A stretch of DNA of 64,000 bases from an uncultured Pseudomonadota bacterium (GCA_963774895.1 CAVZGN010000001.1:450419-514418); one strand, 5' to 3'. Positions 1,214 to 54,820 are shown, counted from the first letter of the stretch. The notes: generated from the letters alone by a model not told the origin. Numbers and translations: made by a program.

Positions 1214-1230
1214 TGACTTCACAGGTGCTT

Positions 1231-1286: not shown

Positions 1287-1339
1287 TTGATAATCACACT
1301 TACTCATTTAATTAATAAAACTATCAGTAATATAACGTT

Positions 1340-2380: not shown

Positions 2381-2398
2381 CCGCAAATTCAATGGAGT

Positions 2399-2573: not shown

Positions 2574-2618
2574 TCCCCTATTATCATTATCATTCTAGGA
2601 GAAAGAATTGTGACTCGT

Positions 2619-2909: not shown

Positions 2910-2957
2910 TTCCTTCAGTTGAAGTGCTGGCGATTTTCAAGGATTAATATTTCTGCT

Positions 2958-9482: not shown

Positions 9483-9536
9483 GTCTGTGATGGTTGAGGC
9501 TTGAAGCGCAGGAGTGACAGTCAGTCGCCGGGATGA

Positions 9537-10637
<1,101 letters not shown>

Positions 10638-23128: not shown

Positions 23129-24376
23129 GCTTTGGGTTGCGATTTCAACTGATCGACGCAACACGCTAGATTCTGCGCGAGCAGAAGGAGGTGTTGCAAG
23201 TGACATACAGAACTCGGATTTATTACACCGAACGCCAGAAGGCCCTGATGTGGGAGCGCTGGCAGAAAGGGGAATCTCTCCAACAGATCGCCCAGCTGTT
23301 TGACCGGTCGCACGGATCGGTCCACGGCATACTGGTTAAGACCGGCGGCATTCGCCCGAGGCCGCGCCGGCGTTCGCGTTTAGCGCTAAGCTTGGCGGAG
23401 CGTGAAGAGCTATCGCGCGCCGTAGCACAGGGCTTCTCATGTCGCTCGATCGCGCGCTCCCTGGGACGCGCACCCTCGAGTGTCAGCCGTGAGCTTAAAC
23501 GCAATGGCGGCCCGGGGTGCTACCGGGCGAGCCAGGCCGACCAGAGTGCTTGGGACCGGGGCCGCCGCCCCAAGGTCTGCAAGCTGGTCGAGCATCGAGC
23601 CTTGGCGCGCCTGGTGACCGACAAGCTGCAGTCATCCTGGTCGCCGGAGCAGATCGCCGGATGGCTGAAGCGGCGCTTTCCCGATGATGAGGGTCTGCAG
23701 GTGTCACACGAGACGATCTATAAGACTCTGTTCATCCAGGCGCGCGGGGCCTTGAAAAAAGAGCTGTTAGAGCACTTGCGGCGTAGCCGTGCCATGCGCC
23801 GTTCACGCCATCACACCCAGAAGACCGATGACCATGGCCGGATCCTGAACGCCGTGTCGATCCGCGAGCGTCCGGCCACCGTCGAAGACCGTGCGGTGCC
23901 GGGCCACTGGGAAGGCGACTTGCTGTTCGGCAACCAGCGCAGCCAGATTGCCACCCTGGTCGAACGGCATACCCGCTATGTCATGCTGGTGAAAGTCGCG
24001 AGCAAAGATACCGAGACCGTCATCAGCGCATTGATCAAACATGCCCATAAGCTGCCGCAGGAGCTCTATAAATCCTTGACCTGGGATCGCGGCAAAGAGA
24101 TGGCCGACCACCAACGCTTCACCCTGGCGACGGATGTCAAAGTCTACTTCTGTGATCCGCAAAATCCCTGGCAACGTGGCAGTAACGAGAATACCAACGG
24201 GCTACTGAGGCAGTACTTTCCTAAGGGCACCGATCTGTCGGTGTACTCGCAGGCTAAACTCAACGCAGTCGCCAGGCAGTTAAATGAGCGGCCGAGGAAG
24301 ACGCTGAACTATGAAACGCCGGCTGAACGCTTTGGCCAATGTGTTGCGTCGATCAGTTGAAACCGCAGTCGGAAGC
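23129..24376 (+). mobile_element. IS30-family insertion sequence, copy B (identical to copy A)
   Basis: See copy A. The flanks diverge immediately outside 23129 and 24376. Confidence 0.9.
23200..24360 (+). CDS. IS30-family DDE transposase
   Basis: The translation is identical to that of 13496..14656. Confidence 0.9.
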   Translation: MTYRTRIYYTERQKALMWERWQKGESLQQIAQLFDRSHGSVHGILVKTGGIRPRPRRRSRLALSLAEREELSRAVAQGFSCRSIARSLGRAPSSVSRELKRNGGPGCYRASQADQSAWDRGRRPKVCKLVEHRALARLVTDKLQSSWSPEQIAGWLKRRFPDDEGLQVSHETIYKTLFIQARGALKKELLEHLRRSRAMRRSRHHTQKTDDHGRILNAVSIRERPATVEDRAVPGHWEGDLLFGNQRSQIATLVERHTRYVMLVKVASKDTETVISALIKHAHKLPQELYKSLTWDRGKEMADHQRFTLATDVKVYFCDPQNPWQRGSNENTNGLLRQYFPKGTDLSVYSQAKLNAVARQLNERPRKTLNYETPAERFGQCVASIS

Positions 24377-33177: not shown

Positions 33178-33612
33178 GTGACTGATTTAACTGCCATATC
33201 GCTGAACGGTGAGAAGCTTGCGGCGCATCTTGCCACCCACGGTGTAACACCCACATCCCAGCGACTCAAGATCGCAGAGGTGCTGTTTCGCAAGCCGCAG
33301 CATCTATCGGCGGAGCAGATCATGGCCGCCGTCAACCGCCAGCCGCCGAAGGTCTCCAAAGCCACGGTGTACAACACCCTCAAGCTGTTTTCGGACAAGG
33401 GCCTGGTGCGGGCAGTGATCGTGGATCCGGCGCGGGTGTTCTACGATCCCACCGCCGGCAACCATCACCATTTCTACAATGCCGATACTGGCGAGCTCAT
33501 GGATATCGAGCCCGAGCAGGTGAAGTTTGCACAACTCCCGGAATTGCCGCCGGGCACCCAGCAGGCTGGCGTCGAAGTCATCGTGCGGCTGAGGCGCAGC
33601 AATAAAAACTGA
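33178..33612 (+). CDS. Fur-family transcriptional regulator (no CxxC pairs, HHH motif; Irr-like)
   Basis: GTG start. TSQRLKIAEVLF...HLSAEQI...VSKATVYNTLKLFSDKGLV is a Fur winged helix. GNHHHFYNADTGELMDI lacks the structural-Zn cysteines. Confidence 0.8.
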   Translation: MTDLTAISLNGEKLAAHLATHGVTPTSQRLKIAEVLFRKPQHLSAEQIMAAVNRQPPKVSKATVYNTLKLFSDKGLVRAVIVDPARVFYDPTAGNHHHFYNADTGELMDIEPEQVKFAQLPELPPGTQQAGVEVIVRLRRSNKN

Positions 33613-33674: not shown

Positions 33675-33750
<76 letters not shown>

Positions 33751-33900: not shown

Positions 33901-34428
33901 CTAATCAAGGCAGTCAGCAATAGACAAGAGTAAGAAGTTATCATTACCATTTTTAATCAAGATTATATTTCCATTAGTGTATTTCAGCTGTGCGCTGTTA
34001 TCTCCACTCGCTGTCCAATCCATATGTGGAATGTTCTGAATAATACTATTCGCAATTGATACGGCAGTTAATGATGACTCATTACCAGGTATATCAACAT
34101 AAATTGCGTCAATGGTAGGATTCGCAGTTAATCCTGACCATTCTAGGGTGATGATTCGATGATTTAGCACTATCTGTGATGCATATTGACCACAGGCTGG
34201 AAAGGCTTGTGCGTGAATATCAATTCTGTTACCTAATTGTTTTTCTACATCGCTGTGTGTTTCATTTATATATATTCCAGACCAGCCAAGTCTTCCAGCA
34301 TTTATAGCTACATAATCACCTGTATTATTTAAATGCGGGGTAGGGCGTGAGGCACACGTACAAATAAGCGTGCAGGTGCACAACAACCCCAATAGTTGGC
34401 CTAACCTCAAAGCGATCACTACTTGCAT
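33901..34428 (-). CDS. hypothetical secreted/membrane-anchored protein (175 aa)
   Basis: ATG 34428 gives the hydrophobic, Cys-rich N-terminus MQVVIALRLGQLLGLLCTCTLICTCAS. It is the last gene of the minus-strand island operon. Confidence 0.5.
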   Translation of the reverse strand: MQVVIALRLGQLLGLLCTCTLICTCASRPTPHLNNTGDYVAINAGRLGWSGIYINETHSDVEKQLGNRIDIHAQAFPACGQYASQIVLNHRIITLEWSGLTANPTIDAIYVDIPGNESSLTAVSIANSIIQNIPHMDWTASGDNSAQLKYTNGNIILIKNGNDNFLLLSIADCLD

Positions 34429-34498: not shown

Positions 34499-34831
34499 TT
34501 ATTCTGTCGACTCTCTCAAATCTGCTTCGAATGTATTAACACGCTCCGATCCATCCAAAGTAGAACTATCCACCGACCCCACGATGAGTTCATTGTCGAT
34601 TACTTGAGTGGCATATTGGCTTCCGTACTCAACGATCTCCTCCGGGGTCGCGTAAATCCCCTTTGGATGAATCCAATGTATCTGATCCGACAGCCTGCCT
34701 TCTTCGGGTCGAATTATTGCAATTGAAGCTACATACTTAAGTTGCGCAATCGTGTTCAATACACTTGATGGCAATTTATGTGCCGTCACTTTTATTACAA
34801 ATCCCTTGTATCCAAATACTTTTGGTTGCAT
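34499..34831 (-). CDS. island paralog family member P1 (110 aa), unknown function
   Basis: A ggaggg SD lies 7 nt before the ATG. MQPKVFGYKGFVIKV...YVASIAII...HPKGIYATPEEIVEYGSQYATQVIDNE shares the family pattern with P2-P4. Confidence 0.7.
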   Translation of the reverse strand: MQPKVFGYKGFVIKVTAHKLPSSVLNTIAQLKYVASIAIIRPEEGRLSDQIHWIHPKGIYATPEEIVEYGSQYATQVIDNELIVGSVDSSTLDGSERVNTFEADLRESTE

Positions 34832-34977: not shown

Positions 34978-35298
34978 CTAACTACATTTGACTGAGAGAT
35001 CATTCTCGACAGACTTTACGCCTTTAACATGTCTGGCAACGTTGACGGCTTTGTCAATATCAGATTTAGAATTGATAAAGCCGCTCAATTTGACAATGCC
35101 TTTATATGTTTCAACGGTGATTTCGGTAGATTTGAGTCCTGTCGTGTGTAATAACGCGGTTTTGACGTCGGTTGTAATGACCGCATCGTCTGTGTATGCA
35201 GCTGCGTTCTCACACCTGGCGCCGGAGGAATATGTTATTAGCGGTGCGAATAGTAATATTGAGAGAATGAATGCAATCAGACGTTGATTAATTGACAT
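34978..35298 (-). CDS. periplasmic BON-domain protein (OsmY-like)
   Basis: A signal peptide is present. DDAVITTDVKTALLHTTGLKSTEITVETYKGIVKLSGFINSKSDIDKAVNVARHVKGVKSVENDL is a BON domain. Confidence 0.8.
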   Translation of the reverse strand: MSINQRLIAFILSILLFAPLITYSSGARCENAAAYTDDAVITTDVKTALLHTTGLKSTEITVETYKGIVKLSGFINSKSDIDKAVNVARHVKGVKSVENDLSVKCS

Positions 35299-35341: not shown

Positions 35342-35620
35342 TCAAGCATGACTTAAAGTCAGATCGCTAAAAGTTGTGCAACATAACCCATCATCTAGAG
35401 TGCGCATCGCAAACTGCCTTCCATGTTCCAAAGCTCTCTGTGGAGAGCTGGAGATTCTGCCAGGGTGCAGCCATTTCTCCTGGCATTTATCCGGCATCCA
35501 CGACATACGCACAATTGCAATGGAGACAAATCGCGGGCGATTACTATTACTTTTTGAGGCTAGTTTTACCGGAACTACTTTTATTATGAATCCCATGTAT
35601 TCGAAGTTTTCTTCTAGCAT
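35342..35620 (-). CDS. island paralog family member P2 (92 aa)
   Basis: An aagagg SD lies 7 nt before the ATG. MLEENFEYMGFIIKV...FVSIAIV...LHPGRISSSPQRALEHGRQFAMRTLDD. Confidence 0.7.
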   Translation of the reverse strand: MLEENFEYMGFIIKVVPVKLASKSNSNRPRFVSIAIVRMSWMPDKCQEKWLHPGRISSSPQRALEHGRQFAMRTLDDGLCCTTFSDLTLSHA

Positions 35621-35702: not shown

Positions 35703-35718
35703 AGCAATTGGAATGCCA
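35703..35718 (-). promoter_or_regulatory. sigma54 (-24/-12) promoter for the P2-BON-P1 operon
   Basis: The minus strand reads TGGCAT-tccaa-TTGCT, 82 nt upstream of the P2 ATG. Confidence 0.7.
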
Positions 35719-35794
35719 ATGCGAAAAAGCAGCATTCCTCCAATGGGTTATCTCGATTTTATAAGTATGGAATTAATAAAATGCAGATGAAGGA

Positions 35795-35995
35795 TGTCTC
35801 CTTGTGGAGACGAATTTACGCAGGTTGTTGAGTAATACCTTGAAAAAAACGGGTATGCGGGTGTCGGCTCAAGGAGACAGTGTTAACAAAAGCGAGCTAC
35901 CACTCATTCCAAGGCATTAATCAGTACCTCTGCATTGAAGAAATCGTCCGACCTCTTTGTTTACGGAGAACTGCATCTGTCGTCAACGGATGACG
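35795..35995. promoter_or_regulatory. three TGTC-N10-GAC(A/G) sites (candidate enhancer-binding sites) in the divergent control region
   Basis: The sites are TGTCtccttgtggaGACG (35795-35812), TGTCggctcaaggaGACA (35862-35879) and TGTCgtcaacggatGACG (35978-35995). They lie between the two divergent sigma54 promoters. Confidence 0.55.
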
Positions 35996-36078
35996 TTCGA
36001 TTTGTATTTGTGCGTCTTTCGCACAACCGGCGTTAATAAATTATCAGTAAATGTCCCAGTTTGGCAGCGATGCAGCCT

Positions 36079-36094
36079 TGGCATGGCATTTGCT
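36079..36094 (+). promoter_or_regulatory. sigma54 promoter for the 36175-P3-exbBD-tonB operon
   Basis: TGGCAT-ggcat-TTGCT, 80 nt upstream of ATG 36175. Confidence 0.7.
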
Positions 36095-36174: not shown

Positions 36175-36564
36175 ATGAAAAGCGTATGCCTAGTACTGCT
36201 AATGATGTCGTCAGCTTTAGGGTTCAAGTTCGTTGATGCGTATAGCACTGCGCACATCAGCCAGGCTCTAACCCAAGCTGCAACAGGCAAAACAGGCAAT
36301 AACCAGCAGGTAGGAAGCACGTCGCCATTTACATTGGCGTTGGCAGACGCGACGGCAGTGCCGCCTGCGTCAGCTTCCAAAGTTCCAGCAGCGAAAGCGA
36401 AAAAAGCGGGTGCGCCAGCATGCAGCAGGCAACCCCCAGTCAATCATGACGCCCAAGTGATTCCGGCTCGAAATAAGGCGCAGTGGCCGCAATCAAGACT
36501 TCCAGCTGAACAGCAAACGCAATGCCAGGCTCAAAAGCCGTTGCATAAGCCTCCGCCCATCTAA
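36175..36564 (+). CDS. small secreted low-complexity (A/P/Q/K-rich) protein ending in KPPPI
   Basis: The signal peptide is MKSVCLVLLMMSSALGFKFVDA. An aggag SD is present. The C-terminal PPPI tail is shared with the two small lipoproteins at 39059 and 39791. Confidence 0.6.
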   Translation: MKSVCLVLLMMSSALGFKFVDAYSTAHISQALTQAATGKTGNNQQVGSTSPFTLALADATAVPPASASKVPAAKAKKAGAPACSRQPPVNHDAQVIPARNKAQWPQSRLPAEQQTQCQAQKPLHKPPPI

Positions 36565-36649
36565 ATAGATGATTCCTATGCATGCCGGCAGTGCGTCAAG
36601 ACTTAAGACCAAGCGAATCCCAATAACACACAGTGAGAGGAGAGCCAGC

Positions 36650-36943
36650 ATGATCATCGAGAAATTCAGCTATAAGGGTTTCACCATAAAGGTGAGTGCA
36701 CACGAGTTGTTTCACGGTTTTGGTCCTTCGGGAGTCAATTTAGGCTGGTATACCAGTGCAGTCGCCATATCAAAAAAACCGGATGGCGAGTGTCACGATT
36801 GTGAGGAAACCCTGCATCCCGGCAGGATTTCTGTCAGCCCCGAAAGAGCCATGGACTATGGCAAAAATTATGCCAGGCACGTTATTGATGAAGAAATTTT
36901 GTATTCAAACCTGAGTAAATTTCTGACGACGCGTCCGATATGA
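36650..36943 (+). CDS. island paralog family member P3 (97 aa)
   Basis: The SD is gagaggag. MIIEKFSYKGFTIKV...YTSAVAI...LHPGRISVSPERAMDYGKNYARHVIDEE. Confidence 0.7.
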   Translation: MIIEKFSYKGFTIKVSAHELFHGFGPSGVNLGWYTSAVAISKKPDGECHDCEETLHPGRISVSPERAMDYGKNYARHVIDEEILYSNLSKFLTTRPI

Positions 36944-36990
36944 ATACGTTTATTAATCGGACATGACTCTTTGGAAATGGAGGGATGCAC

Positions 36991-37695
36991 ATGAATGCCG
37001 TGACCGACCCAAATATCAACAATATTATCAACCCACCCAACCTGTCGCTCGGCCAACTTGTGCTGCATGCGGATCCAATCGTGCAAGCCGTATTGCTGCT
37101 GCTCTTGGTATTGTCCATATGGAGCTGGGCTGTCATTGTGCAGAAGGCCTTTGAACTGCATCGCGCTAAAAGGGTAGTGAAAAAACTGGAAACCGCTATC
37201 GAAAATGGGCATTCACCGGACGAAATCGGCGTAGTTGAAACGCATCCAGCCGCGGTCGTAATCAAGGCCGGGGTATTGGAATGGCAAACACAAATTCAGC
37301 CGAACTTAGGTGAAACCCCGGGCGAAGAACGTGAACGCATAGAACAAAGCATGCGCAACGCCCTGGGTCGCGAGATGCGCCGCATGCAGAAACGCCTGCC
37401 GCTACTCGCTACCGTGGGTTCGGTCGCAGTATTCATCGGTCTATTTGGCACGGTTTGGGGAATTATGAACAGTTTCACGGCAATTGCCCAAGCCCATGAC
37501 ACAAGTCTCGCTGTGGTAGCTCCCGGCATAGCCCAAGCGCTCATCGGCACAGCAGCTGGTTTGGCTGCGGCGATTCCCGCCGTCATCGGCTACAACAAAT
37601 TGGTAACCGAACTGAACTATTACGCGGGGCGGCTGCAGACGCTTATCAGCGTTTGCAGCAACATGATGGTCAAAAGCATTCGCGTTGGAGCATGA
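36991..37695 (+). CDS. exbB: MotA/TolQ/ExbB proton-channel protein
   Basis: A ggaggg SD lies 6 nt before ATG 36991. FIGLFGTVWGIMNSF and ALIGTAAGLAAAIPAVIGYN are ExbB/TolQ motifs. Confidence 0.85.
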   Translation: MNAVTDPNINNIINPPNLSLGQLVLHADPIVQAVLLLLLVLSIWSWAVIVQKAFELHRAKRVVKKLETAIENGHSPDEIGVVETHPAAVVIKAGVLEWQTQIQPNLGETPGEERERIEQSMRNALGREMRRMQKRLPLLATVGSVAVFIGLFGTVWGIMNSFTAIAQAHDTSLAVVAPGIAQALIGTAAGLAAAIPAVIGYNKLVTELNYYAGRLQTLISVCSNMMVKSIRVGA

Positions 37696-37699
37696 CGAC

Positions 37700-38197
37700 A
37701 TGGGCATGAATGTAACCCCCGGTGCGATGTCCGAAGATACGTTATCCGGTTATCAGCCAATGGCTGAAATCAATGTGACGCCACTGGTTGACGTTATGCT
37801 GGTATTACTCATCATATTTATGATTACAGCGCCTCTTATGATGGCGCAACTGCCCATTGAACTGCCCAAAACCAGCGCGGCGGAACTAGGTAAACCGAAA
37901 CAGCCGCTGATTGTTAGTCTGGATACAAAGGGGCAGTATTATATCGATGACAAACCTACTGCATCTGTGGACTTGCCCACGCAACTCAAGACACTTGCCA
38001 ACCAGGATCCCGATCAGACTGTGTATGTACGCGCTGATAAAGCCATCCCCTACGGGCAAGTGATGGCACTGCTGGGCGAAGTAGGCCAATCCGGGTTTTA
38101 CAGGATATCCTTGATAAGCAAACGGGCGAGTGCCTCAACGAATAGCTCCGGCGCCGCATCGCCTGCTCCCTTGGCAGGCACGCAGCCGCCACGCTGA
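37700..38197 (+). CDS. exbD: biopolymer transport protein ExbD/TolR
   Basis: AEINVTPLVDVMLVLLIIFMITAP is the signature TM segment. Confidence 0.85.
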   Translation: MGMNVTPGAMSEDTLSGYQPMAEINVTPLVDVMLVLLIIFMITAPLMMAQLPIELPKTSAAELGKPKQPLIVSLDTKGQYYIDDKPTASVDLPTQLKTLANQDPDQTVYVRADKAIPYGQVMALLGEVGQSGFYRISLISKRASASTNSSGAASPAPLAGTQPPR

Positions 38198-38200
38198 ATC

Positions 38201-38827
38201 ATGCTCCAATTCAGCCACAGTCTCGGGATATCGGTCGGTATCCATATAGCAGCGGTTCTGCTCCTAATCTTGATTGCCGAATATCATTCGGCCACACCTC
38301 TGCCACCTTCCAACGCATCTTTGGCCGATGCCATCGCCGTCAACATTGTGCCACCACCGCCACCGCAATCACCTCCGCAGCCGCCACAACCACGGGTGCC
38401 ACAGCCGACGCCGCCGGTCCTACAGCCGCCCCCGCAGACTATTTCTACCGAAGCCGCTCAGGCCGATATATCAACACCACCGCCCAAGAGCATTCCAGCT
38501 CCGGCACCGCCGCCGCCCACGCAGAGTCAAACTACGCCTCTGGAAGCGACCTATGCGCAGATTGTCAGCGCCCTTCTGGAAGCAAATAAGCGCTACCCAC
38601 GCCAGGCATTGCTTGCCGGAGAACAGGGCACCGTGATCTTGTGGTTTGTGCTTAACCGTGAAGGTACGGTACTTGCGTATCGGATTGAACAGTCTTCAGG
38701 GCAACTGATATTCGATGAAGCAGTGAAACGCCTTATTCAGCGTATTCATTTTCCACCCTTTCCGAATCGCGATCTGAGCCAACGCAAGACCTTCATGGTA
38801 CCCATACAATTCGAGTTAACGGGATAA
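38201..38827 (+). CDS. tonB: energy transducer TonB
   Basis: An N-terminal TM is followed by a Pro-rich spacer (PPPPPQSPPQPPQPRVPQP). The C-terminal TonB domain reads YPRQALLAGEQGTVILWFVLNREGTV. Confidence 0.85.
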   Translation: MLQFSHSLGISVGIHIAAVLLLILIAEYHSATPLPPSNASLADAIAVNIVPPPPPQSPPQPPQPRVPQPTPPVLQPPPQTISTEAAQADISTPPPKSIPAPAPPPPTQSQTTPLEATYAQIVSALLEANKRYPRQALLAGEQGTVILWFVLNREGTVLAYRIEQSSGQLIFDEAVKRLIQRIHFPPFPNRDLSQRKTFMVPIQFELTG

Positions 38828-38835
38828 ATTGTTGT

Positions 38836-38920
38836 TGTCTCATTCCACCGACATCATATTTTTCACTGAATTCAAGGCGTTGTAGATTCAATCCGGTCTA
38901 AGCGTCACCCTCAGGCGACA
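38836..38920. promoter_or_regulatory. two (T/C)GTC-N10-GACA sites upstream of the third sigma54 promoter
   Basis: The sites are TGTCtcattccaccGACA (38836-38853) and CGTCaccctcaggcGACA (38903-38920). Confidence 0.5.
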
Positions 38921-38982
38921 GATTTCCAGATAACGGTCGGTAAGACCCGCCGAATTAACCGTGTTTGCTGAATATCGGATTC

Positions 38983-38998
38983 TGGCACGTCGTTTGCA
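38983..38998 (+). promoter_or_regulatory. sigma54 promoter for the lipoprotein-P4 operon
   Basis: TGGCAC-gtcgt-TTGCA is a perfect consensus, 60 nt upstream of ATG 39059. Confidence 0.75.
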
Positions 38999-39058
38999 GG
39001 AGTATTCATCGGGTATCGAACCCAGGCTTTTCACTCCATTAAACATGCAGGTGGCGTT

Positions 39059-39262
39059 ATGAAAATCATAGTTGCTGGATGCTTGACAGCTTCGCTGATC
39101 CTCGGGGCACTCTGTGCTTGTAATGGCAATAATCCACAAAATAACCCGCAAGCGACTCCTGCCCCCACTACCCAGCAGGCGCCCGCACAGACAACACAGC
39201 CGGCGCCTACAGCCACGACCAAATCGAAGGCAGGATCGAACGTCGTACCGCCACCCCTCTGA
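39059..39262 (+). CDS. small secreted/lipoprotein, Q/P/T/A-rich, ending in VPPPL
   Basis: 67 aa, with an N-terminal hydrophobic segment and Cys residues (ILGALCAC). TTQQAPAQTTQPAPTATT is paralogous to the 39791 protein. Confidence 0.6.
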   Translation: MKIIVAGCLTASLILGALCACNGNNPQNNPQATPAPTTQQAPAQTTQPAPTATTKSKAGSNVVPPPL

Positions 39263-39290
39263 GGAAAGCCGTTTCACCAGGAGAATTGCC

Positions 39291-39566
39291 ATGACCCATA
39301 AAATCTTCGGCTATAAGGGATTTATCGTAAAGGTGATACCGCGTGAAGTCATTGCCATGCAATCCGCAGCCAACAGACGTATCCGTTATGCAGCATCCGT
39401 GGTGATCATGCGTTTTGTGGATGCCACACGCCACAAAAACGCGATGCGCTGCTATCCGGGTGGCACATGCGTGACGCCGGAGCAAGCGCTGAAGCTGGGC
39501 ACGGAATATGCCACTCACCTGATTGACGATGATTTCTCCATTACTGCGACGGCTGAACAATTCTGA
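39291..39566 (+). CDS. island paralog family member P4 (91 aa)
   Basis: A caggaga SD lies 6 nt before the ATG. MTHKIFGYKGFIVKV...YAASVVI...YPGGTCVTPEQALKLGTEYATHLIDDD. Confidence 0.7.
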   Translation: MTHKIFGYKGFIVKVIPREVIAMQSAANRRIRYAASVVIMRFVDATRHKNAMRCYPGGTCVTPEQALKLGTEYATHLIDDDFSITATAEQF

Positions 39567-39699
39567 ATTGACCGGCATTATTTTACGCTGCTGATCGTCG
39601 CAATGAGACAACGCTTCATTCATACGTTATGCCTATAACAAATGCTATTTGGAATTGGATCTATGCAAAAGGCTTTTAAAATCGGGTGTATTCGAAGCT

Positions 39700-39715
39700 T
39701 GGCATGCAGCTTGCT
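39700..39715 (+). promoter_or_regulatory. sigma54 promoter for the lipoprotein/EF-hand operon
   Basis: TGGCAT-gcagc-TTGCT, 75 nt upstream of ATG 39791. Confidence 0.7.
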
Positions 39716-39790
39716 GCATTTCAATCGGAGACGATATAAAACCATCGTGTTGCTTGTATCAATTTCATCACAACTGGGAAGGAGAGAACC

Positions 39791-39982
39791 ATGAAAATCG
39801 CTAATGCATTGGCTGCGCTACTGACACTCGGCCTTATTGCTGGGTGTTCTGGTAATCCGTCGCAGGACTCACAACAACAAGGTATGAACCCTGCAGGAAC
39901 CACCACACAACAGGCGCCGGCTCCGGCCACGCAGCCAGCACCGGCTCCAACGACCCACCAGCCACCACCCCCGTCGATATGA
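39791..39982 (+). CDS. small lipoprotein, Q/P/T/A-rich, ending in PPPPSI
   Basis: Canonical lipobox LIAGC. An aggagag SD is present. TTTQQAPAPATQPAPAPTT is paralogous to the 39059 protein. Confidence 0.65.
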   Translation: MKIANALAALLTLGLIAGCSGNPSQDSQQQGMNPAGTTTQQAPAPATQPAPAPTTHQPPPPSI

Positions 39983-40060: not shown

Positions 40061-40438
40061 ATGAAAAACGTAATCGCAGTAATTTCAGGAATTGTGTTGG
40101 CAATCAGCCTGGGCGCCGCTTTCGCGGGCAATACACCAGCTAGCGGCAAGCAGGATATGCAGAATCCGGAGCAGGCATCGCAGACTCCATCCGATCCTCA
40201 AAATGCATGCAATACCAAATACCCAAGCTTCAGCCAGCTTGATACCAAACATAAGGATTATCTCACCAAGAAAGAAGTAAGCCGGGTTCACGGCCTGGAA
40301 CAGGCATTCAAGAAAGCTGACACCGACCATAATGGGAAACTGAGCGATTCTGAATATACGGCGTGGGTGGAATCCCATTGCAAAAGCAGCATGCTGAACC
40401 AGCAACCGCAGGGGCAGACACCACCACCGGTTGGATGA
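40061..40438 (+). CDS. periplasmic EF-hand calcium-binding protein
   Basis: A signal peptide is present. The EF-hand loop is DTDHNGKLSDSE, with a second degenerate loop DTKHKDYLTKKE. Confidence 0.7.
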   Translation: MKNVIAVISGIVLAISLGAAFAGNTPASGKQDMQNPEQASQTPSDPQNACNTKYPSFSQLDTKHKDYLTKKEVSRVHGLEQAFKKADTDHNGKLSDSEYTAWVESHCKSSMLNQQPQGQTPPPVG

Positions 40439-40486
40439 TTTAAATCGCGCGGTTATTAAACGCGTCTGCTATCAGCAGAACCTGTG

Positions 40487-40530
40487 TTCCGGCAGGGTCC
40501 GTTGGACCCTGCCGGAATGTTGTATATTTG
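40487..40530 (+). terminator. strong rho-independent terminator
   Basis: ttccggcagggtcc-gtt-ggaccctgccggaa forms a 14-bp stem, followed by a T-rich tract. Confidence 0.7.
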
Positions 40531-40705: not shown

Positions 40706-42142
40706 ATGAAAATTCTTCAGCCCAGCTCGATACGCAAACGGATCCTGTTCTCATTTTCGCTAGTCATGTTACCCCTGGTCTTTGGACTGGCAGTAGCAAT
40801 ACTCTCCATACATAATCTGGCTACACAGGGGCAAAACGCAGTTCTAAACGCCGCCGATACCGTTCAATACAGCCGCACGTTGCTGGAAGAACTACCCGAT
40901 ATGGAACGTAATGCGCTCCAGTACCGGGTACTGCAAGATCAATCGCTGTATAAGCTTTATACAGAACGGCATCAAGAATTCCAGCAGACCAGTACTGCCT
41001 TCTCACGCTTGAAGCTTAATGACACCATGCGTGAAAAACTCAACGAACTTACCACACGAGAGCAAGTCGTTTTCAATAATTTTTCGCGGTTCGATCCAAA
41101 TTCAGACGATTCCAATATGGCAGTGGATCAATTTGAGGATTTGAACAATCTGGCACGCTCCATACTCGCATTAGGCACGCAATCCATCGAAAATGAAATC
41201 AATAATATGCAGACGACTTCCAAAACCCGTCAAAGCCAACTGGCGTGGCTGGTGGCAATTCTGATACTCGCGGGTTTTTGCATGGCTGCAATATCCATCG
41301 TTCTGATCACTCGGCCAATGCGATCAATAGACCAGGCGATAAAGGGAATCGGCGCCGGAGATCTGGCCACCCCGATCGCGGTGAAAGGACCCCAGGATCT
41401 GAATGAACTTGGCAAACGCTTGGACTGGTTGCGCTCCAGGTTGCTTGATCTCGAGCAGCATCGCGTTCGCTTTCTCAGGCATATCTCACATGAACTCAAG
41501 ACACCGTTGACAAACATCCGTGAAGGTTCGCAGTTGTTGACGGATCAGATCGTGGGACCGCTTAATACTGAACAATTGGAAATTGCGCAGATTCTGCAAA
41601 AGAATGGCATGCAGTTGCAACAACGCATCGAAGATCTGCTGAATTACAGCGCCGCGCAAGGGCCTCAATTGTTCGGTGAAAACCAATTGATCAAGTTCAA
41701 TCAGGTGATTGTCAAAGTGATCGAGGACCAGAAGATGGCCATCAAGGCCAAACACATAAAAATCGATGCGCACTTGCATGAAGTCGCCATACTGGCTGAT
41801 GCGGAAAAAATTCGTATCGTAGTGGACAATCTGCTTTCCAACGCCATCAAATACTCGCCCATGGGCGGTGTAATCGGGCTGAATCTAAAGGTAGAGAATG
41901 GTCAAGCGGTTTTGAATGTGGAAGATCAAGGTCCAGGCATCAAAGCGGATGAGCGGGAGAAGGTTTTTGAAGCTTTTTATCAGGGCCAGGGCAGTGACAG
42001 CGGTTATGTAAAAGGCACCGGATTGGGTCTATCCATCGCCCGCGAATATATACGTCTGCACCAAGGTATGATTGAGATCGTCGAACGACAGCATGGAGCA
42101 GGCTTTCGGATTGCTCTACCCGCTACGGGATCAGGAGGCTGA
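40706..42142 (+). CDS. sensor histidine kinase (GlrK/QseE-like)
   Basis: Two TM segments, a HAMP-like region, the H-box FLRHISHELKTPLTNI and the ATPase motifs NAIKYSP, DQGPGI, GTGLGLSI. GTG 40691 is an alternative start. Confidence 0.8.
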   Translation: MKILQPSSIRKRILFSFSLVMLPLVFGLAVAILSIHNLATQGQNAVLNAADTVQYSRTLLEELPDMERNALQYRVLQDQSLYKLYTERHQEFQQTSTAFSRLKLNDTMREKLNELTTREQVVFNNFSRFDPNSDDSNMAVDQFEDLNNLARSILALGTQSIENEINNMQTTSKTRQSQLAWLVAILILAGFCMAAISIVLITRPMRSIDQAIKGIGAGDLATPIAVKGPQDLNELGKRLDWLRSRLLDLEQHRVRFLRHISHELKTPLTNIREGSQLLTDQIVGPLNTEQLEIAQILQKNGMQLQQRIEDLLNYSAAQGPQLFGENQLIKFNQVIVKVIEDQKMAIKAKHIKIDAHLHEVAILADAEKIRIVVDNLLSNAIKYSPMGGVIGLNLKVENGQAVLNVEDQGPGIKADEREKVFEAFYQGQGSDSGYVKGTGLGLSIAREYIRLHQGMIEIVERQHGAGFRIALPATGSGG

Positions 42143-42754
42143 ATGCGCAGGAATTTGCCTGGCCTAGTTGTATCGCTCGTCATCAGCATTATTCTGGTTT
42201 TGACGGGATGTATTCCCCGCTCCACAAAGCCGGATGTGCTTATGATCCCTGAAACAGGTGACGGCCAAATTGTCAGATTGATGGACTACGTCAACACCGT
42301 CTTGAGTCTGCCACCGGCTGCTCAGGCGGCCACGCAGGAAAACCTTAGGCAGCAATATAATCTAACGCAGTTCCCCGAAGACCGGATGCGACTTGCGCTT
42401 TTGGATGTTCTGTCGGACAGGCCGTCGCGCAATCTGGATGAGGCTGTGTCATTAGTATCTGGATATAACTGGGAAGTAGTGGGGCCGGGATTCAAGGGCT
42501 TGGCCAATCTGCTATTAAATATTGCCAGTAGTCAGCAAGCAATCGCCACAATTGACCAGTCACTCGCGCAGCAATTGGCTTCGGAGCGCTCACAAAAAGA
42601 TCATCTTCAACAACAACTGGACGCGTTGAAGAGTATCGAGAAAACCATGGATAAACGCGACAAGTCGATAGTGGCTCCACCCATCCGCAAGCTGCCGCCA
42701 GCCTCAACCAGCAACTCACAACCTCCAGCCACACCCCCTGGGGAGCAGCTTTGA
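42143..42754 (+). CDS. lipoprotein encoded between kinase and regulator (QseG/YfhG-like position)
   Basis: Lipobox LVLTGC. 203 aa. The position mirrors E. coli glrK-qseG-glrR. I cannot assert sequence similarity to QseG. Confidence 0.55.
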   Translation: MRRNLPGLVVSLVISIILVLTGCIPRSTKPDVLMIPETGDGQIVRLMDYVNTVLSLPPAAQAATQENLRQQYNLTQFPEDRMRLALLDVLSDRPSRNLDEAVSLVSGYNWEVVGPGFKGLANLLLNIASSQQAIATIDQSLAQQLASERSQKDHLQQQLDALKSIEKTMDKRDKSIVAPPIRKLPPASTSNSQPPATPPGEQL

Positions 42755-44127
42755 AAGCCACGCCCGCAAAAGCGATCTTGACTACGGGACGTATTCTGGT
42801 TGCTGACGATGACCCCGGCCTGCTGCGCCTGTTAGTCATGCGTCTGACCGCTGCGGGGCACGAGGTGCGTACGGTGGAAAGCGGCGAACAGGCCTTGGCG
42901 CAGATCCCGCTGTTCCGGCCACACGCGGTCATAACCGATATGCGCATGGCGGGTATGGATGGTATTGAGCTATTTAACAACATACGGCGCCATGATCAAT
43001 CTTTGCCAGTGATCATTCTCACCGCTCATGGCACTATTCCTGACGCCGTGGATGCCACCCATAAAGGAGTATTTGCCTATCTCACCAAACCCTTCGATAG
43101 CAAATCACTGTTGAAATGGGTGAACGATGCCTTGCGGATATCCGGCAAGCTTGAATTAAAAGATGTTGAAAACGCAGATGCTGCATGGCGTGCGGACATT
43201 ATCACACGCAGCCTGCTGATGGAGGATTTGTTGCGTCAAGCGAAGCTCGTATCTGCGGGCGATACGGCGGTTCTCATACAAGGTGAGAGTGGTACCGGCA
43301 AGGAACTATTGGCGCGTGCCATTCACAACGCCAGCCCGCGCGGCGACAAGCCGTTCATAGCCGTCAACTGTGCCGCGATCCCGGAAACCCTGCTGGAATC
43401 CGAGCTTTTCGGATACAGCAAGGGCGCATTCACCGGTGCAACCTCGGACCGGCGCGGCCTGTTTCAGGCCGCACATACCGGTACTCTATTCCTGGATGAG
43501 ATTGGCGACATGCCTTTGAGTTTCCAGGTGAAATTGTTGCGTGCGTTGCAGGAGAAAGAAATCCGGCCGGTTGGTTCGAATAATCCTATCGCAGTGGATG
43601 TACGCATTATTTCGGCCACGAACCATGACCTTGAAAAGAAGGTCTCGGAACAGGGGTTCCGCGAAGATCTATATTATCGGCTGGCAGTAGTGCCGCTGAC
43701 CATGCCACCGCTGGCAGCCCGCCGCGAAGATATTCCGCTCCTGGTTACCCATTTCCTAAGCCATGCGGGAGGAAGCAATACAAAAAGCATCAAAGGATTT
43801 GCACCCCGGGCCATGGAACTATTATTGAGTGCGCCTTGGCCGGGCAATGTGCGGCAGCTACAGAACGTAGTGGAACAAACCGTAGCACTTACCACCACCC
43901 CCCTCATACCGGAAGTCCTGGTACAAAATGCCCTGCGTGAGAAGACCGGACAAGTCACTTCCCTGGTCGAAGCGCGGGAACATTTTGAACGCGAATACCT
44001 GGTACAACTACTGCAAATCACCGAGGGCAACGTAAGTCAGGCAGCACACCTGGCGCAGCGGAATCGCACTGAATTCTACAAACTTTTACACCGTTACCAA
44101 CTTAAACCAGAGGAATTCCGATCCTGA
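42751..44127 (+). CDS. sigma54-dependent response regulator (GlrR/QseF-like, NtrC family)
   Basis: The receiver domain reads ILVADDDPGLLRLLVMRLT...PVIILTAHGTIPDAVDATHKGVFAYLTKP, close to my memory of GlrR. The AAA+ domain shows GESGTGKE and GAFTGA. A C-terminal Fis-type HTH is present. The TTG start overlaps the upstream stop. Confidence 0.85.
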   Translation: MKATPAKAILTTGRILVADDDPGLLRLLVMRLTAAGHEVRTVESGEQALAQIPLFRPHAVITDMRMAGMDGIELFNNIRRHDQSLPVIILTAHGTIPDAVDATHKGVFAYLTKPFDSKSLLKWVNDALRISGKLELKDVENADAAWRADIITRSLLMEDLLRQAKLVSAGDTAVLIQGESGTGKELLARAIHNASPRGDKPFIAVNCAAIPETLLESELFGYSKGAFTGATSDRRGLFQAAHTGTLFLDEIGDMPLSFQVKLLRALQEKEIRPVGSNNPIAVDVRIISATNHDLEKKVSEQGFREDLYYRLAVVPLTMPPLAARREDIPLLVTHFLSHAGGSNTKSIKGFAPRAMELLLSAPWPGNVRQLQNVVEQTVALTTTPLIPEVLVQNALREKTGQVTSLVEAREHFEREYLVQLLQITEGNVSQAAHLAQRNRTEFYKLLHRYQLKPEEFRS

Positions 44128-44234
44128 TTCGGTGCGAGTTGATACCGCCCATATATTAACAGCGGATTCTGTACTTTGAGAAGGGCGAGCGCCGCATGTA
44201 AGTGATTTTGATCGAACGCTTAAATATAACTTGT

Positions 44235-44280
44235 ATTCGTAATGCGTGGGTCGGGAGTTCGACTCTCTCCGCCGGCACCA
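44235..44280 (+). repeat. attR: displaced 3' fragment of tRNA-Thr (46 bp)
   Basis: attcgtaatgcgtgggtcgggagttcgactctctccgccggcacca is identical to 33705-33750. Confidence 0.9.
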
Positions 44281-53928: not shown

Positions 53929-54055
53929 CAGGCAAGTGGCTGTTTTTTAGAACCAGAGCCCGGTGTAACGGCTGTACAGGCAAGGTTGGCGTTAACGTAA
54001 CTCCAGCCTGTATCGTGATTCACCCGCATCACAATGTGAATTGAGACAAAGCAAG

Positions 54056-54820
54056 ATGTATCAGTGCCGGCTCATTGTCTGTATGACTATGATCAGCTTA
54101 TTGCTGATTGCCTGTGCGACAGCCAACGAACCGCCGCCCATCGGTTCCGAACCTACCGGCCCTACCACTTATCCCGTTACTGTGAGCGCAACGACGCTGA
54201 AATTTCTCAGCTCACCACAAGATCAAACACAAAATGGACTTGAAATAAGCCTGCATGCCTTGGATACCGTACCGCAGCTTTACTATCGCTACCAGATGGC
54301 TTCCAAGGTCAATGGAACTTACCTCGTGTTTATGATAAAACCACCAAAACTGTATTCGGTTTATCGTGTTCCATTTTATAAAAATGATCCCGACCGGGTC
54401 ATCGTCAAAGTCGAATTGACAAATCATTCAGCCCAAATCCTGGATACCGCTAATGCCGTGTGCGCGTTCGAGCTGGATGGACAAACTGTGGTGACACAGC
54501 CGCTCAAGGCGGGTGACTTACTGCCGGACCAAACGAAGGTTGTACCCGTTCAAGGACCAAGTCTGGAACAGCTCAAGGGACATGAAGAACTGGCCGTATG
54601 GATTTTTCAGCCCAGCTCGGCAAATGCGGCACTGAGCAAAACTCCTTTCAAATGGACCCTTCATTACACTTTGACAGTCGAAACCGAGGCTGCAAATGCA
54701 ATATTGGTGGCTCAGTCGCCGTACGAATCAGGGGTCAGTAATTATGCGGGACGGATTGAACCGGCCAATTCTGATACCACATCAACATCAGATACTGCGA
54801 AACCACCCCCAATCCGGTAA
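54056..54820 (+). CDS. hypothetical lipoprotein
   Basis: The lipobox-like motif LLLIAC lies near the N-terminus. I recognise no family. Confidence 0.5.
   Translation: MYQCRLIVCMTMISLLLIACATANEPPPIGSEPTGPTTYPVTVSATTLKFLSSPQDQTQNGLEISLHALDTVPQLYYRYQMASKVNGTYLVFMIKPPKLYSVYRVPFYKNDPDRVIVKVELTNHSAQILDTANAVCAFELDGQTVVTQPLKAGDLLPDQTKVVPVQGPSLEQLKGHEELAVWIFQPSSANAALSKTPFKWTLHYTLTVETEAANAILVAQSPYESGVSNYAGRIEPANSDTTSTSDTAKPPPIR

Follow-up and report, generated by a model that had tools for sequence, protein, structure and literature searches.

The 64,000-nucleotide stretch of DNA analysed here (the window) derives from an uncultured Pseudomonadota bacterium. A search for the sigma-54 -24/-12 pattern TGGCAY-N5-TTGCW yielded five matches, compared with 0.31 expected, all of them located within 4 kb of the window (35.7–39.7 kb). 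The features of the cluster are as follows.

33901–34428, minus strand: 175-aa exported protein, minus-strand operon
34499–34831, minus strand: P-family paralog, same operon
34978–35298, minus strand: BON protein, same operon
35342–35620, minus strand: P-family paralog, same operon
35703–35718, minus strand: sigma-54 match (TGGCATTCCAATTGCT) heading the minus-strand operon
35795–35995, no strand assigned: divergent control region with three GlrR/QseF-type sites, TGTCTCCTTGTGGAGACG (35795), TGTCGGCTCAAGGAGACA (35862) and TGTCGTCAACGGATGACG (35978)
36079–36094, plus strand: sigma-54 match P1 (TGGCATGGCATTTGCT), 81 nt upstream of ORF1
36175–36564, plus strand: ORF1, 129-aa secreted protein with an NH2-terminal hydrophobic signal, disordered by prediction
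36650–36943, plus strand: P-family gene, 97 aa, without a signal peptide; the cluster holds four paralogs in all
36991–37695, plus strand: exbB (Pfam MotA_ExbB), operon of ORF1
37700–38197, plus strand: exbD (Pfam ExbD), operon of ORF1
38201–38827, plus strand: tonB (Pfam TonB_C), operon of ORF1
38836–38920, no strand assigned: two GlrR/QseF-type sites 67 bp apart, TGTCTCATTCCACCGACA (38836) and CGTCACCCTCAGGCGACA (38903)
38983–38998, plus strand: sigma-54 match P2 (TGGCACGTCGTTTGCA), 61 nt upstream of ORF2
39059–39262, plus strand: ORF2, 67-aa prolipoprotein; signal MKIIVAGCLTASLILGALCA followed by Cys; mature part 47 aa with Q/P/T/A repeats, ending VVPPPL
39291–39566, plus strand: P-family gene, 91 aa, starting 28 nt past the ORF2 stop codon
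39700–39715, plus strand: sigma-54 match P3 (TGGCATGCAGCTTGCT), 76 nt upstream of ORF3
39791–39982, plus strand: ORF3, 63-aa prolipoprotein; signal MKIANALAALLTLGLIAG followed by Cys, with Ser at +2; mature part 45 aa, ending PPPPSI
40061–40438, plus strand: periplasmic EF-hand protein, 125 aa including the signal peptide (EF-hand_6, E 4.9e-7)
40484–40520, plus strand: strong intrinsic terminator-like hairpin, 17-bp stem then a T run, ending the ORF3/EF-hand transcript
40706–42142, plus strand: QseE/GlrK-like histidine kinase
42143–42754, plus strand: lipoprotein in the QseG position, lipobox LVLTGC
42751–44127, plus strand: GlrR/QseF-like sigma-54 activator

Promoters, activator sites and partner genes

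An earlier note on this DNA had described ORF1, ORF2 and ORF3 as small secreted proteins that share a C-terminal PPP[LI] tail and each lead a sigma-54 operon. The coordinates, lengths and ends that it gave for them (HKPPPI for ORF1, VVPPPL for ORF2 and PPPPSI for ORF3) were accurate, and all three were also predicted by an independent gene caller on a metagenome contig of identical sequence. It was likewise correct that three of four sigma-54 promoters head small ORFs, the fourth (35703–35718, minus strand) heading a P-family gene. Each of the three ORFs is indeed the first after a -24/-12 match, but this arrangement is not a conserved rule: in the related loci L007 and L008, the ORF3-type gene comes after the P-family gene, and the promoter precedes the EF-hand gene instead.

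Most such promoters in the window and in related loci were accompanied by one or two upstream TGTC-N10-GACA sites, usually paired 67 to 68 bp apart, which are the same as the published GlrR site consensus, TGTCN10GACA (PMC3045617). The minus-strand promoter has two sites, whose starts precede its -24 element by approximately 94 and 161 nt, and both this promoter and the positions of the sites in the divergent control region are conserved in L003, L005 and L010. At P2 the corresponding distances are 147 and 80 nt; an ORF2-type gene with the same site pair and spacing was present in L003, L005, L007, L008, L009, L010, L011 and L012, and the position of the dual activator sites is conserved across nine loci. 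Upstream of P3 we observed only a degenerate site, with about three mismatches in the window copy, and L003 and L005 retain a one-mismatch site (TGTCGCAATGGGACAACA) whose start lies 104 nt upstream of the -24 element. We saw no clear IHF consensus.

The genes at 40706–44127 have the order kinase, lipoprotein, regulator that has been described for qseEGF (PMC12691602). The sensor region of the kinase matched only QseE in PDB (9M08 and 9M07, E 4.3e-5), and the regulator scored best as GlrR (598 bits, followed by AtoC with 416), below the NCBIfam equivalog cutoff of 763. The QseG-position protein showed no similarity to QseG detectable by sequence and no PDB sequence match. From the sequence, we infer that this adjacent QseE/QseG/QseF (GlrK/GlrR)-type envelope-sensing system would switch on a small regulon of four sigma-54 promoters, acting through TGTC-N10-GACA pairs at their 67- to 68-bp spacing, and that the regulon would comprise ORF1, ORF2, ORF3, exbB-exbD-tonB, the BON and EF-hand proteins, and four P proteins.

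Only 8 representative clusters of the P-family were present among 1.84 billion proteins. Its AF2 model (pLDDT 75) showed a four-stranded sheet with two helices, for which the best meaningful fold match was CV_2116 (2kon; Foldseek probability 0.96, TM 0.51/0.59); the match to NCBIfam CV_2116_dom (E 0.01) was far under the cutoff (15.9 against 58 bits). The TonB orthologues at all loci retain the motifs AV[NTMA][IV]xPPP, QPPPQ[TA]I and TPPP[KL]S[IVM]P within a variable spacer.

The lipoprotein family of ORF2 and ORF3

ORF2 and ORF3 are real genes and paralogs, both from a lineage-restricted mini-lipoprotein family. Plain BLASTP gave no match, owing to their low complexity. Against an HMM built from ORF3-type sequences only, ORF2-type sequences scored 31 to 57 bits, whereas decoys that kept the signal peptide but had the mature part shuffled reached at most 30 bits, a result that bears out the paralogy claimed earlier. 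All members found sit in this one gene cluster, and both this family and the P-family are orphans confined to it, in a few uncultured gammaproteobacterial MAGs. Shine-Dalgarno sequences precede both ORFs, which are retained in every related locus (at least nine) with in-frame indels; their substitutions show the third-position excess of coding sequence, and dN/dS values of 0.11 to 0.35 for ORF2 and 0.10 to 0.23 for ORF3 indicate purifying selection.

The description of these proteins as exported and of low complexity was upheld for ORF2 and ORF3 by sequence features that predict export. All 28 homologues have a signal peptide and the lipobox Cys, which is invariant, and 27 of them matched a PROSITE-style lipobox pattern (the exception, L012_2, has CVCAC). 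The lipobox LIAGC reported for ORF3 is present, and ORF2, which was not recognized as a lipoprotein in the earlier note, has the lipobox ALCAC (LAAC, VAGC or LSAC in homologues). The mature peptides, 41 to 58 residues in length, consist of [AT]TQxAPxP-type repeats in variable number (P 21%, T 17%, Q 17%, A 15%, aliphatic residues <5%), with hydrophobic residues nearly absent except at the C-terminus, and they are almost certainly unstructured. Given that Asp is absent from position +2, the lipidated peptides would be directed to the outer membrane, as judged solely by the E. coli +2 rule, and may act as disordered tethers in the envelope.

ORF1 is a member of a different family, that of a secreted, disordered, Cys-containing protein. 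We rejected it as a third member of the tail family: it did not match the mini-lipoprotein HMM, it is not a lipoprotein, and its terminus is not conserved, with homologues ending in KPPPN, KPPSD, KPPPKK, KPPPNSS, CHPKKTA or CVPPGTGDLP and a hydrophobic last residue found only in the window copy. Distant homologues have canonical cleavage sites (VYA or VEA before Q). The invariant residues are C83, N90-H91-D92 (the NHD motif) and K121, with C117 almost invariant. Every lineage retains ORF1, its indels being in frame (dN/dS about 0.5), and its AF2 model had a pLDDT of 55 and a pTM of 0.12.

Conservation and possible role of the proline tail

The tail proposed for all three ORFs was thus found conserved in the ORF2/ORF3 family but not in ORF1. 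It takes the form hydrophobic-PPP-hydrophobic or PPPxS-hydrophobic, with the variants PPP[LIV] and PPPxS[IL]. PPP occurred within the last six residues of 21 of the 28 family sequences (0.8 in shuffles), the last residue was L, I, V or M in 23 (1.3 in shuffles), and both features were combined in 18 (0.03 in shuffles), although these counts overstate independence because the sequences share a phylogeny. Members without PPP or a hydrophobic end have TPPPR, KTPPR, QTPLR, KPPSP, PPPA, QTPTSI or SLPPGNLI. No part of the mature peptide other than the TTQQAP core is as well conserved as the tail, and the few hydrophobic residues of this peptide concentrate at -1 and -5/-6. The tail is kept across lineages with saturated synonymous sites, and its Pro codons differ synonymously between them (CCG, CCA, CCC and CCT); selection therefore acts on the peptide.

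Downstream of ORF3, the EF-hand protein has the C-terminus QGQTPPPVG and so the same tail, which in most lineages reads TPPPVG, MTPPPV or MPPPPI; this strengthens the idea of a regulon-wide tail. The earlier note had overlooked this tail on the co-regulated protein. In L007, the EF-hand gene stops early, and an in-frame ALPPPHG lies beyond the stop codon. Overall, 4 of 16 cluster genes had PPP tails, whereas in the rest of the window the count was 1 of about 50 (Fisher p = 0.011). Given that ExbD (TQPPR), the QseG-like protein (ATPPGEQL) and an unrelated lipoprotein at 54041–54820 (AKPPPIR) also have Pro-rich C-termini, part of the tail signal may reflect a tendency of this lineage as a whole to put low-complexity ends on its envelope proteins.

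The best explanation of the whole, to which we assign a probability of about 0.5, is that ORF2 and ORF3 encode disordered, lipid-anchored peptides with a C-terminal docking tail that belong to a QseF-type sigma-54 regulon. The earlier interpretation would thus stand for the exported, low-complexity ORF2 and ORF3 with their retained tail, but not for ORF1 or for operon leadership as a rule. The tail could plausibly serve in docking: it may constitute a short linear motif for a common periplasmic partner, and finding it on the unrelated EF-hand protein as well points to a single common receptor. The earlier note had suggested the TonB spacer, a protease or the QseG-like lipoprotein as partners. 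We list as candidates the co-regulated Ton motor, given that the TonB linker contains the similar conserved motifs PPPKS[IVM] and PPPQ[TA]I; the QseE/QseG sensor complex, as a possible feedback route; and a PDZ-type reader of C-termini. The resemblance of the ORF3 tail, PPPxSI, to these TonB-linker motifs is the sole lead on a partner.

A rather less probable but serious alternative is that the peptides are generic stress protectants or spacers, hydrophilic disordered "bristles" tethered to the membrane, of the OsmB or hydrophilin kind, produced in envelope or osmotic stress to keep the periplasm hydrated or spaced, with the tail as a protease-resistant cap lacking a specific receptor. Their extremely hydrophilic, repetitive composition and variable repeat number would suit such a role, as would co-regulation with a BON (OsmY-like) protein, the kdp genes that neighbour the cluster in L003, the several members without a hydrophobic last residue, and the P-rich ends of other envelope proteins of the organism. 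It is less consistent with the conservation of the tail and with the retention of hydrophobic residues at -1 and -5/-6 in a peptide that has no others, and the same tail occurs on a folded, unrelated EF-hand protein, which a role as a protease cap would not call for.

We consider it improbable that docking takes the specific form of TonB-linker mimicry, in which tails imitating PPPxS[IVM] or hydrophobic-PPP would tune the extra Ton motor by competing for or recruiting a partner of TonB, be it ExbD, peptidoglycan or an outer-membrane protein. The ORF3 tail PPP[PA]SI and the ORF2 tail [VLMT]PPP[LI] are comparable to the conserved TonB motifs, exbB-exbD-tonB belongs to the same regulon, and in E. 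coli a disordered TonB segment is clamped by ExbD (PMC10771500). The likeness, however, spans only 4 to 6 residues within very proline-rich sequences and could be due to chance, the published ExbD-bound segment is a beta-strand (ISVTMV) that the tails cannot form, and the motifs and tails show no co-variation across lineages.

Polyproline is a known ribosome-stalling motif, and every small ORF precedes another gene at a distance of 28 to 85 nt. The ORFs might then be regulatory leaders, in which PPP near the stop codon stalls ribosomes in an EF-P- or proline-dependent manner and thereby controls how the P-family or EF-hand gene that follows is translated, with no role for the peptide. We regard this as very unlikely: the signal peptide, lipobox Cys and TTQQAP core are under purifying selection yet needless for stalling, the ORF3-type gene shifts position in L007 and L008, the EF-hand tail sits at the end of its operon before the terminator, and the 28-nt gap between ORF2 and the P-family gene contains no conserved hairpin. 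That the promoters instead drive small RNAs and the ORFs are accidental, as the enterobacterial GlrR/QseF regulon of mainly sRNA genes next to qseE might suggest (GlrR with glmY and glmZ; PMC3045617, PMC8745638), can be virtually discounted, given that Rfam detected no RNA family in this DNA, GlmY and GlmZ included, and that the ORFs show coding-type substitution, persist in at least nine loci with in-frame length changes, and are called by independent gene callers.

Comparison with known systems

The system resembles QseE/QseG/QseF (GlrK/YfhG/GlrR) in its gene order, in a regulator closest to GlrR and a kinase sensor that matches QseE structures only, and in targets with -24/-12 promoters and upstream TGTC-N10-GACA sites. 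It differs in that the targets are four adjacent protein-coding operons rather than sRNA genes (known targets in Enterobacteriaceae being glmY, glmZ and rpoE P2), in having two sites at a fixed spacing of 67 to 68 bp instead of three, in the lack of a clear IHF consensus, in a QseG-position protein not recognizable as QseG by sequence, and in a regulator under the NCBIfam equivalog cutoff. The P-family resembles CV_2116 (PDB 2kon, NCBIfam NF046097) in the topology of its small alpha/beta fold and gives a weak match to its profile, but it scores far below that family's cutoff and is confined to this cluster.

Among small lipoproteins, Neisseria Lip (H.8 antigen) is likewise built of short Ala/Pro-rich repeats, the AAEAP pentapeptide, and its mature part consists essentially of repeats alone, with no known globular domain. 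The repeat here is [AT]TQxAPxP, with no sequence relationship, and Lip is surface-exposed in a pathogen; neither a conserved C-terminal motif nor sigma-54 control is known for it. E. coli OsmB and similar proteins are comparable in mature size (~45–50 aa), low complexity and induction by an envelope or osmotic stress pathway, whereas OsmB is Gly-rich rather than P/T/Q-rich, is controlled by RpoS and Rcs, and lacks a proline tail. The NCBIfam small-lipoprotein models YgdI/YgdR and Lpp/OprI gave scores far under cutoff. The functional analogy behind the tether model is provided by the outer-membrane lipoproteins LpoB and RcsF, in which the lipid anchor leads into a Pro-rich disordered segment of sufficient length to cross the periplasm to an inner-membrane partner; their linker carries a folded domain, whereas the cargo of ORF2 and ORF3 would be only a C-terminal motif of 4 to 6 residues.

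Promoters, activator sites and the adjoining sensor system

Three small open reading frames, ORF1, ORF2 and ORF3, were confirmed in the window sequence with the positions, lengths and C-terminal ends that the earlier note had reported.

Small ORFs of the cluster (window coordinates)
36175-36564, + strand, ORF1, 129 aa, C-terminal end HKPPPI
39059-39262, + strand, ORF2, 67 aa, C-terminal end VVPPPL
39791-39982, + strand, ORF3, 63 aa, C-terminal end PPPPSI

Each ORF has a Shine-Dalgarno sequence in front of it, and each was also predicted by an independent gene caller on a metagenome contig of identical sequence. The sigma-54 promoters proposed ahead of them were borne out as perfect -24/-12 matches located 61-81 nt 5' of each ORF. 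A promoter was defined by -24 GG and -12 GC elements, spaced as in TGGCAC-N5-TTGCW and located 5' of a gene. For TGGCAY-N5-TTGCW, 0.31 matches would be expected in 64 kb; the window has five, all of them between 35.7 and 39.7 kb. Four of these are intergenic, properly oriented and conserved in related loci, which are metagenome-assembled genomes (MAGs) or metagenome sequences with the same cluster. The fifth, on the minus strand at 36512-36527 inside ORF1, is absent from the closest relative (L003), has no activator sites and was dismissed as a chance match.

Sigma-54 promoters and GlrR/QseF-type sites (window coordinates)
35703-35718, - strand, intergenic sigma-54 match
36079-36094, + strand, intergenic sigma-54 match
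38983-38998, + strand, intergenic sigma-54 match
39700-39715, + strand, intergenic sigma-54 match ahead of ORF3 (P3)
35795-35995 and 38836-38920, GlrR/QseF-type sites, at the same positions in loci L003, L005 and L007-L012

Most sigma-54 promoters of the window and the related loci have upstream one or two copies, with at most one mismatch, of TGTC-N10-GACA, the published GlrR/QseF consensus (PMC3045617). The sites usually form a pair 67-68 bp apart, centre to centre, and this arrangement is conserved across 9 loci; the proximal sites start 80-104 nt and the distal sites 147-172 nt 5' of the -24 element, or lie 72-104 and 139-172 nt from it by other ways of measuring the offset. The divergent region 35718-36079 contains three sites serving both strands. 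P3 of the window is an exception, with only a degenerate activator site. A match to the IHF consensus WATCARNNNNTTR was found between activator sites and promoter in only 2 of ~30 promoters, and no IHF site is claimed. In L005, an extra sigma-54 match (12348-12363) lies 3' of the regulator gene and has no good GlrR-type site.

At the end of the cluster are genes for a kinase, a lipoprotein and a sigma-54 response regulator, in the order reported for qseEGF in Gamma- and Betaproteobacteria (PMC12691602). The regulator scored 598 bits against the NCBIfam GlrR model, with AtoC next at 416 bits and the equivalog cutoff at 763. Among PDB sequences, the sensor region of the kinase (residues 1-198) matched only Salmonella QseE (9M08 chain C, E 4.3e-5, and 9M07); it also gave a weak 4HB match. 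The protein encoded between kinase and regulator, at the position of QseG, is a 203-aa lipoprotein with the lipobox LVLTGC, and showed no sequence similarity to QseG in Pfam, NCBIfam or the PDB, solved QseG included. ORF2 and ORF3 lie behind sigma-54 promoters with GlrR-type sites, beside a QseE/GlrR-like system.

The predicted regulon would consist on one strand of ORF1 with a gene of the P-family (orphan proteins described below) and exbB-exbD-tonB, of ORF2 with another P gene, and of ORF3 with a gene for an EF-hand protein, this last unit ending in a strong terminator (40484-40520). On the opposite strand it would take in a P gene, a BON protein gene, a second P gene and a gene for a 175-aa exported protein. 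The earlier note had also made each small gene the leader of its operon, and this did not hold as a rule: in L007 and L008 a P gene comes before the ORF3-type gene, and the EF-hand gene holds the promoter. Judged by these gene orders, the leading place is therefore not conserved, and regulon membership is. In two further loci (L017 5141-6001 and L018 1448-2308), the gene call after exbD is not tonB but a 72-aa ORF on the minus strand; from the sequence, tonB may have been frameshifted or lost in this sub-lineage.

P-family genes of the window
34499-34831, - strand
35342-35620, - strand
36650-36943, + strand
39291-39566, + strand

P-family proteins, of ~95 aa and with an N-terminal MxxxxFxYKGFxIKV, occur as four paralogs per genome, and in the window each P gene has a neighbour that encodes an exported protein (the 175-aa protein, the BON protein, ORF1 or ORF2). 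The family is restricted to this cluster in a handful of MAGs: eight representative clusters were found among 1.84 billion proteins, and four MAG species among 185,579. The AlphaFold (AF2) model of the P protein (pLDDT 75) has a four-stranded sheet and two helices, and weakly resembles CV_2116 (PDB 2kon), which Foldseek retrieved with a probability of 0.96 at a TM-score of only 0.51/0.59 and an E value of 0.37. A sub-threshold match to the NCBIfam CV_2116 model (15.9 and 15.4 bits, cutoff 58) agrees with this weak resemblance.

Several features of the surrounding sequence were also recorded. Two 389-aa ORFs (13487-14656 and 23191-24360) share their first 25 and last 14 residues and represent two copies, ~9.7 kb apart, of one IS element; the transposase that they encode has HTH_38 and rve integrase-core domains (first copy scanned). 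Given that they flank a GGDEF/EAL/PAS protein gene (19707-22187) and other genes, the pair and the enclosed genes may constitute a composite transposon. A tRNA-Thr(CGT) gene (33675-33750) lies between a Fur-family gene (33178-33612) and the cluster. Just 3' of the regulator gene, 44184-44280 gave a weak, sub-threshold tmRNA/tRNA-like Rfam match (15.5 bits) and no ARAGORN call, and may be a tRNA remnant at the other cluster edge. In L003 the left-hand neighbours of the cluster are different (kdpFAB).

A family of small lipoproteins

Protein searches, four MAG loci from a species-level genome collection, three metagenome loci retrieved by a scan with a 4-sequence alignment, and contigs with divergent members together yielded 28 distinct sequences of the ORF2/ORF3 family. 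All 28 have an N-terminal MK, a hydrophobic core and an invariant Cys, and 27 match a PROSITE PS51257-style lipobox pattern. ORF2 and ORF3 both possess a type-II signal peptide as defined by a positive N-terminus, a hydrophobic core, the lipobox [LVI..][ASTVI..][GAS]-C and a Cys at position 15-35. The lipobox noted earlier for ORF3 is present (MK..LTLGLIAG/C, Cys19), and ORF2, which had not been called a lipoprotein, has one as well (MK..LILGALCA/C, Cys21), with canonical LAAC, VAGC and LSAC in its orthologues. Residue +2 is S, T, N or A and never D; because Asp is absent from this position, the +2 rule of E. coli would predict sorting of the peptides to the outer membrane.

The mature peptides, 41-58 residues long, consist of two to four [AT]TQxAPxP-like repeats and are composed of 21% P, 17% T, 17% Q, 15% A and 8.5% S. 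BLASTP, with its low-complexity filtering, gave no alignment between ORF2 and ORF3. A hidden Markov model (HMM) built from ORF3-type sequences only, however, assigned 31-57 bits to ORF2-type sequences, compared with a maximum of 30 bits for decoys that combined the same signal peptide with a shuffled mature part. The paralogy proposed in the earlier note is therefore upheld by the HMM scores, which indicate kinship beyond common composition. Codon-aligned comparisons of ORF2/ORF3-type genes gave dN/dS values of 0.10-0.35, with third-position changes clearly in excess, and length differences were always in frame. For ORF1, ORF2 and ORF3, neither Pfam nor NCBIfam yielded a match above cutoff. 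Known small-lipoprotein families (Lpp/OprI, YgdI/YgdR, TUL4, LppU and others) scored 11-17 bits against cutoffs of 35-3000, in matches confined to the signal peptide or the stretch of low complexity, and Pfam gave no match to such families. We consider ORF2 and ORF3 very probably genuine exported lipoproteins of this regulon, with a probability of roughly 0.85.

ORF1 had been counted as a third member of the proline-tailed set. Membership of the ORF2/ORF3 family was defined by a lipobox Cys, the repeat core TTQQAP and a conserved C-terminal end of PPP plus a hydrophobic residue, and HMM, lipobox and tail evidence place ORF1 in a family of its own, which comprises seven protein clusters and sequences from L003, L005, L007, L008, L009, L011 and L015. 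ORF1 does not match the lipoprotein-family HMM, and no lipobox occurs in its family; an N-terminal hydrophobic signal does, with canonical SPase-I sites in distant members (VYA/Q, VEA/Q). Its conserved motif is C-x6-NHD ... C, with C83, N90-H91-D92 and K121 invariant and C117 nearly so. With a dN/dS of ~0.5, and always 5' of a P-family gene and exbB-exbD-tonB, ORF1 is a real, fast-evolving secreted protein. It is probably disordered: the AF2 model is foldless (pLDDT 55, pTM 0.12).

The proline tail and its possible meaning

The shared PPP[LI] tail described in the earlier note was retained for ORF2 and ORF3, and fell for ORF1, whose KPPPI end is found in the window only and is variable or missing in homologues (KPPPN, KPPSD, KPPPKK, KPPPNSS, CHPKKTA, CVPPGTGDLP). 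PPP occurs within the last six residues of 21 of the 28 ORF2/ORF3 family sequences, whereas shuffling of each mature peptide gave a mean of 0.8; the last residue is L, I, V or M in 23 (shuffle mean 1.3), and both features coincide in 18 (shuffle mean 0.03). Aliphatic residues make up <5% of the mature peptides and are concentrated at -1, and in ORF2-type sequences also at -5/-6, with tail forms VPPPL, LPPPL, MPPPI and VTPPL. Exceptions are TPPPR, KTPPR and QTPLR in one ORF3-type sub-lineage and, elsewhere, KPPSP, PPPA, QTPTSI and SLPPGNLI. From one lineage to another the Pro codons of the tail vary (CCG, CCA, CCC, CCT) but the residues do not, so that conservation acts on the peptide and not on an RNA or DNA element. 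The products of ORF2 and ORF3 are conserved prolipoproteins whose C-terminal motif is under selection. Readings of these genes as leader peptides that stall the ribosome, or as small RNAs, were considered unlikely and rejected.

The same tail, overlooked previously, is present on the periplasmic EF-hand protein encoded 3' of ORF3, which ends in ..GQTPPPVG in the window and in ..MTPPPV, ..MPPPPV, ..MPPPPI or ..VPPPGI elsewhere.

EF-hand genes with the tail
window, 40061-40438
L003, 10273-10647
L010, 7427-7801
also in L011, L013, L015 and L017

This protein has a weak lanmodulin-like NCBIfam match (29 bits, far under the cutoff). In L007 (~9520-9940) the EF-hand gene ends early (..KCGSMG, TAA) and is followed in frame by PKDQALPPPHG and a stop; from this arrangement the tail looks recently cut off, or the stop codon is possibly read through.

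Within the window, PPP is found in the last six residues of 4/16 cluster genes and 1/~50 other genes (Fisher p = 0.011), a modest enrichment. Proline-rich ends are also seen on ExbD (..TQPPR) and on the lipoprotein at the QseG position (..ATPPGEQL). They occur outside the regulon too, since an unrelated 259-aa lipoprotein (54041-54820, lipobox ..LLIAC) with no Pfam family and no upstream sigma-54 promoter ends in ..TTSTSDTAKPPPIR (..AKPPPIR). Because of these three proteins, part of the tail signal may reflect a tendency common to envelope proteins of this lineage.

Because an unrelated co-regulated protein shares the hydrophobic-PPP-hydrophobic end, the tail is most simply read as a short linear motif that would dock onto one common partner; we advance this specific role tentatively, as a possibility. 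The QseE/GlrR-like envelope sensor is predicted to induce ORF2 and ORF3, whose products would be lipidated, pass to the outer membrane and act there as disordered tethers. At ~3 Å per residue, 45-58 residues would reach ~130-170 Å, comparable to the reported height of the periplasmic QseG-QseE complex, 169 Å. The main rival, which we judge somewhat unlikely, takes the peptides for generic stress lipoproteins, OsmB-like "bristles" whose end resists proteases.

If the tail does serve in docking, the co-regulated Ton motor is a candidate partner, because the linker of TonB keeps PPPKS[IVM], PPPQ[TA]I and AVxΦxPPP across lineages. In TonB (38201-38827; linker at residues ~45-105), AV[NTMA][IV]xPPP, QPPPQ[TA]I and TPPP[KL]S[IVM]P are kept in all lineages and the spacer varies; the last two motifs resemble the ORF3 tail PPPxSI, in a likeness of 4-6 residues only. 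Other candidates would be the QseE/QseG sensor, which would provide a feedback route, and a protein that reads hydrophobic C-termini, for example a PDZ protease. In an improbable extension of the docking proposal, the tail would be a regulon-wide address label by which disordered ORF2/ORF3-type peptides tethered to the outer membrane and the Ca2+-binding EF-hand protein are shown to one dedicated periplasmic receptor, either the QseE/QseG complex or the ExbBD-TonB motor, so that a QseEGF-type system would sense envelope geometry or cation status, or exert feedback on them, via tethered peptide ligands. To our knowledge, two-component signalling and Ton modulation through tethered peptide ligands have not been described. 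As a docking motif, the tail would offer a simple, synthesisable peptide handle with which to find periplasmic contacts of a widespread, poorly understood sensor; otherwise, the peptides would be ordinary lineage-specific stress lipoproteins. The earlier note was right in part: the promoters were upheld, as were ORF2 and ORF3 with their paralogy and conserved tail, and its functional idea is hypothetical.

Comparison with known systems

The system resembles QseEGF/GlrKR in its QseE-type sensor, its TGTCN10GACA DNA sites and its gene order. In Enterobacteriaceae, QseEGF/GlrKR has a glmY/glmZ small RNA target next to qseE, whereas a permissive Rfam scan of 33-45 kb detected no GlmY/GlmZ-like RNA and gave only a tRNA and sub-threshold noise. 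The cluster is a compact candidate regulon for an envelope sensor of the QseEGF/GlrKR type outside enterobacteria, with four sigma-54 promoters, conserved dual activator sites and proteins rather than small RNAs as products. It also defines two orphan families present only in this cluster: the mini-lipoproteins with their proline tail, and the CV_2116-like P proteins. QseEGF-type sigma-54 control is known already, as are small, low-complexity, stress-regulated lipoproteins as a kind, exemplified by OsmB and by Lip/H.8, a Neisseria lipoprotein with Ala/Pro repeats. What is new is a QseF-type regulon built of protein-coding operons, a lipoprotein family confined to one gene cluster in a few uncultured gammaproteobacterial MAGs, and a conserved C-terminal motif that is also carried by a co-regulated EF-hand protein.
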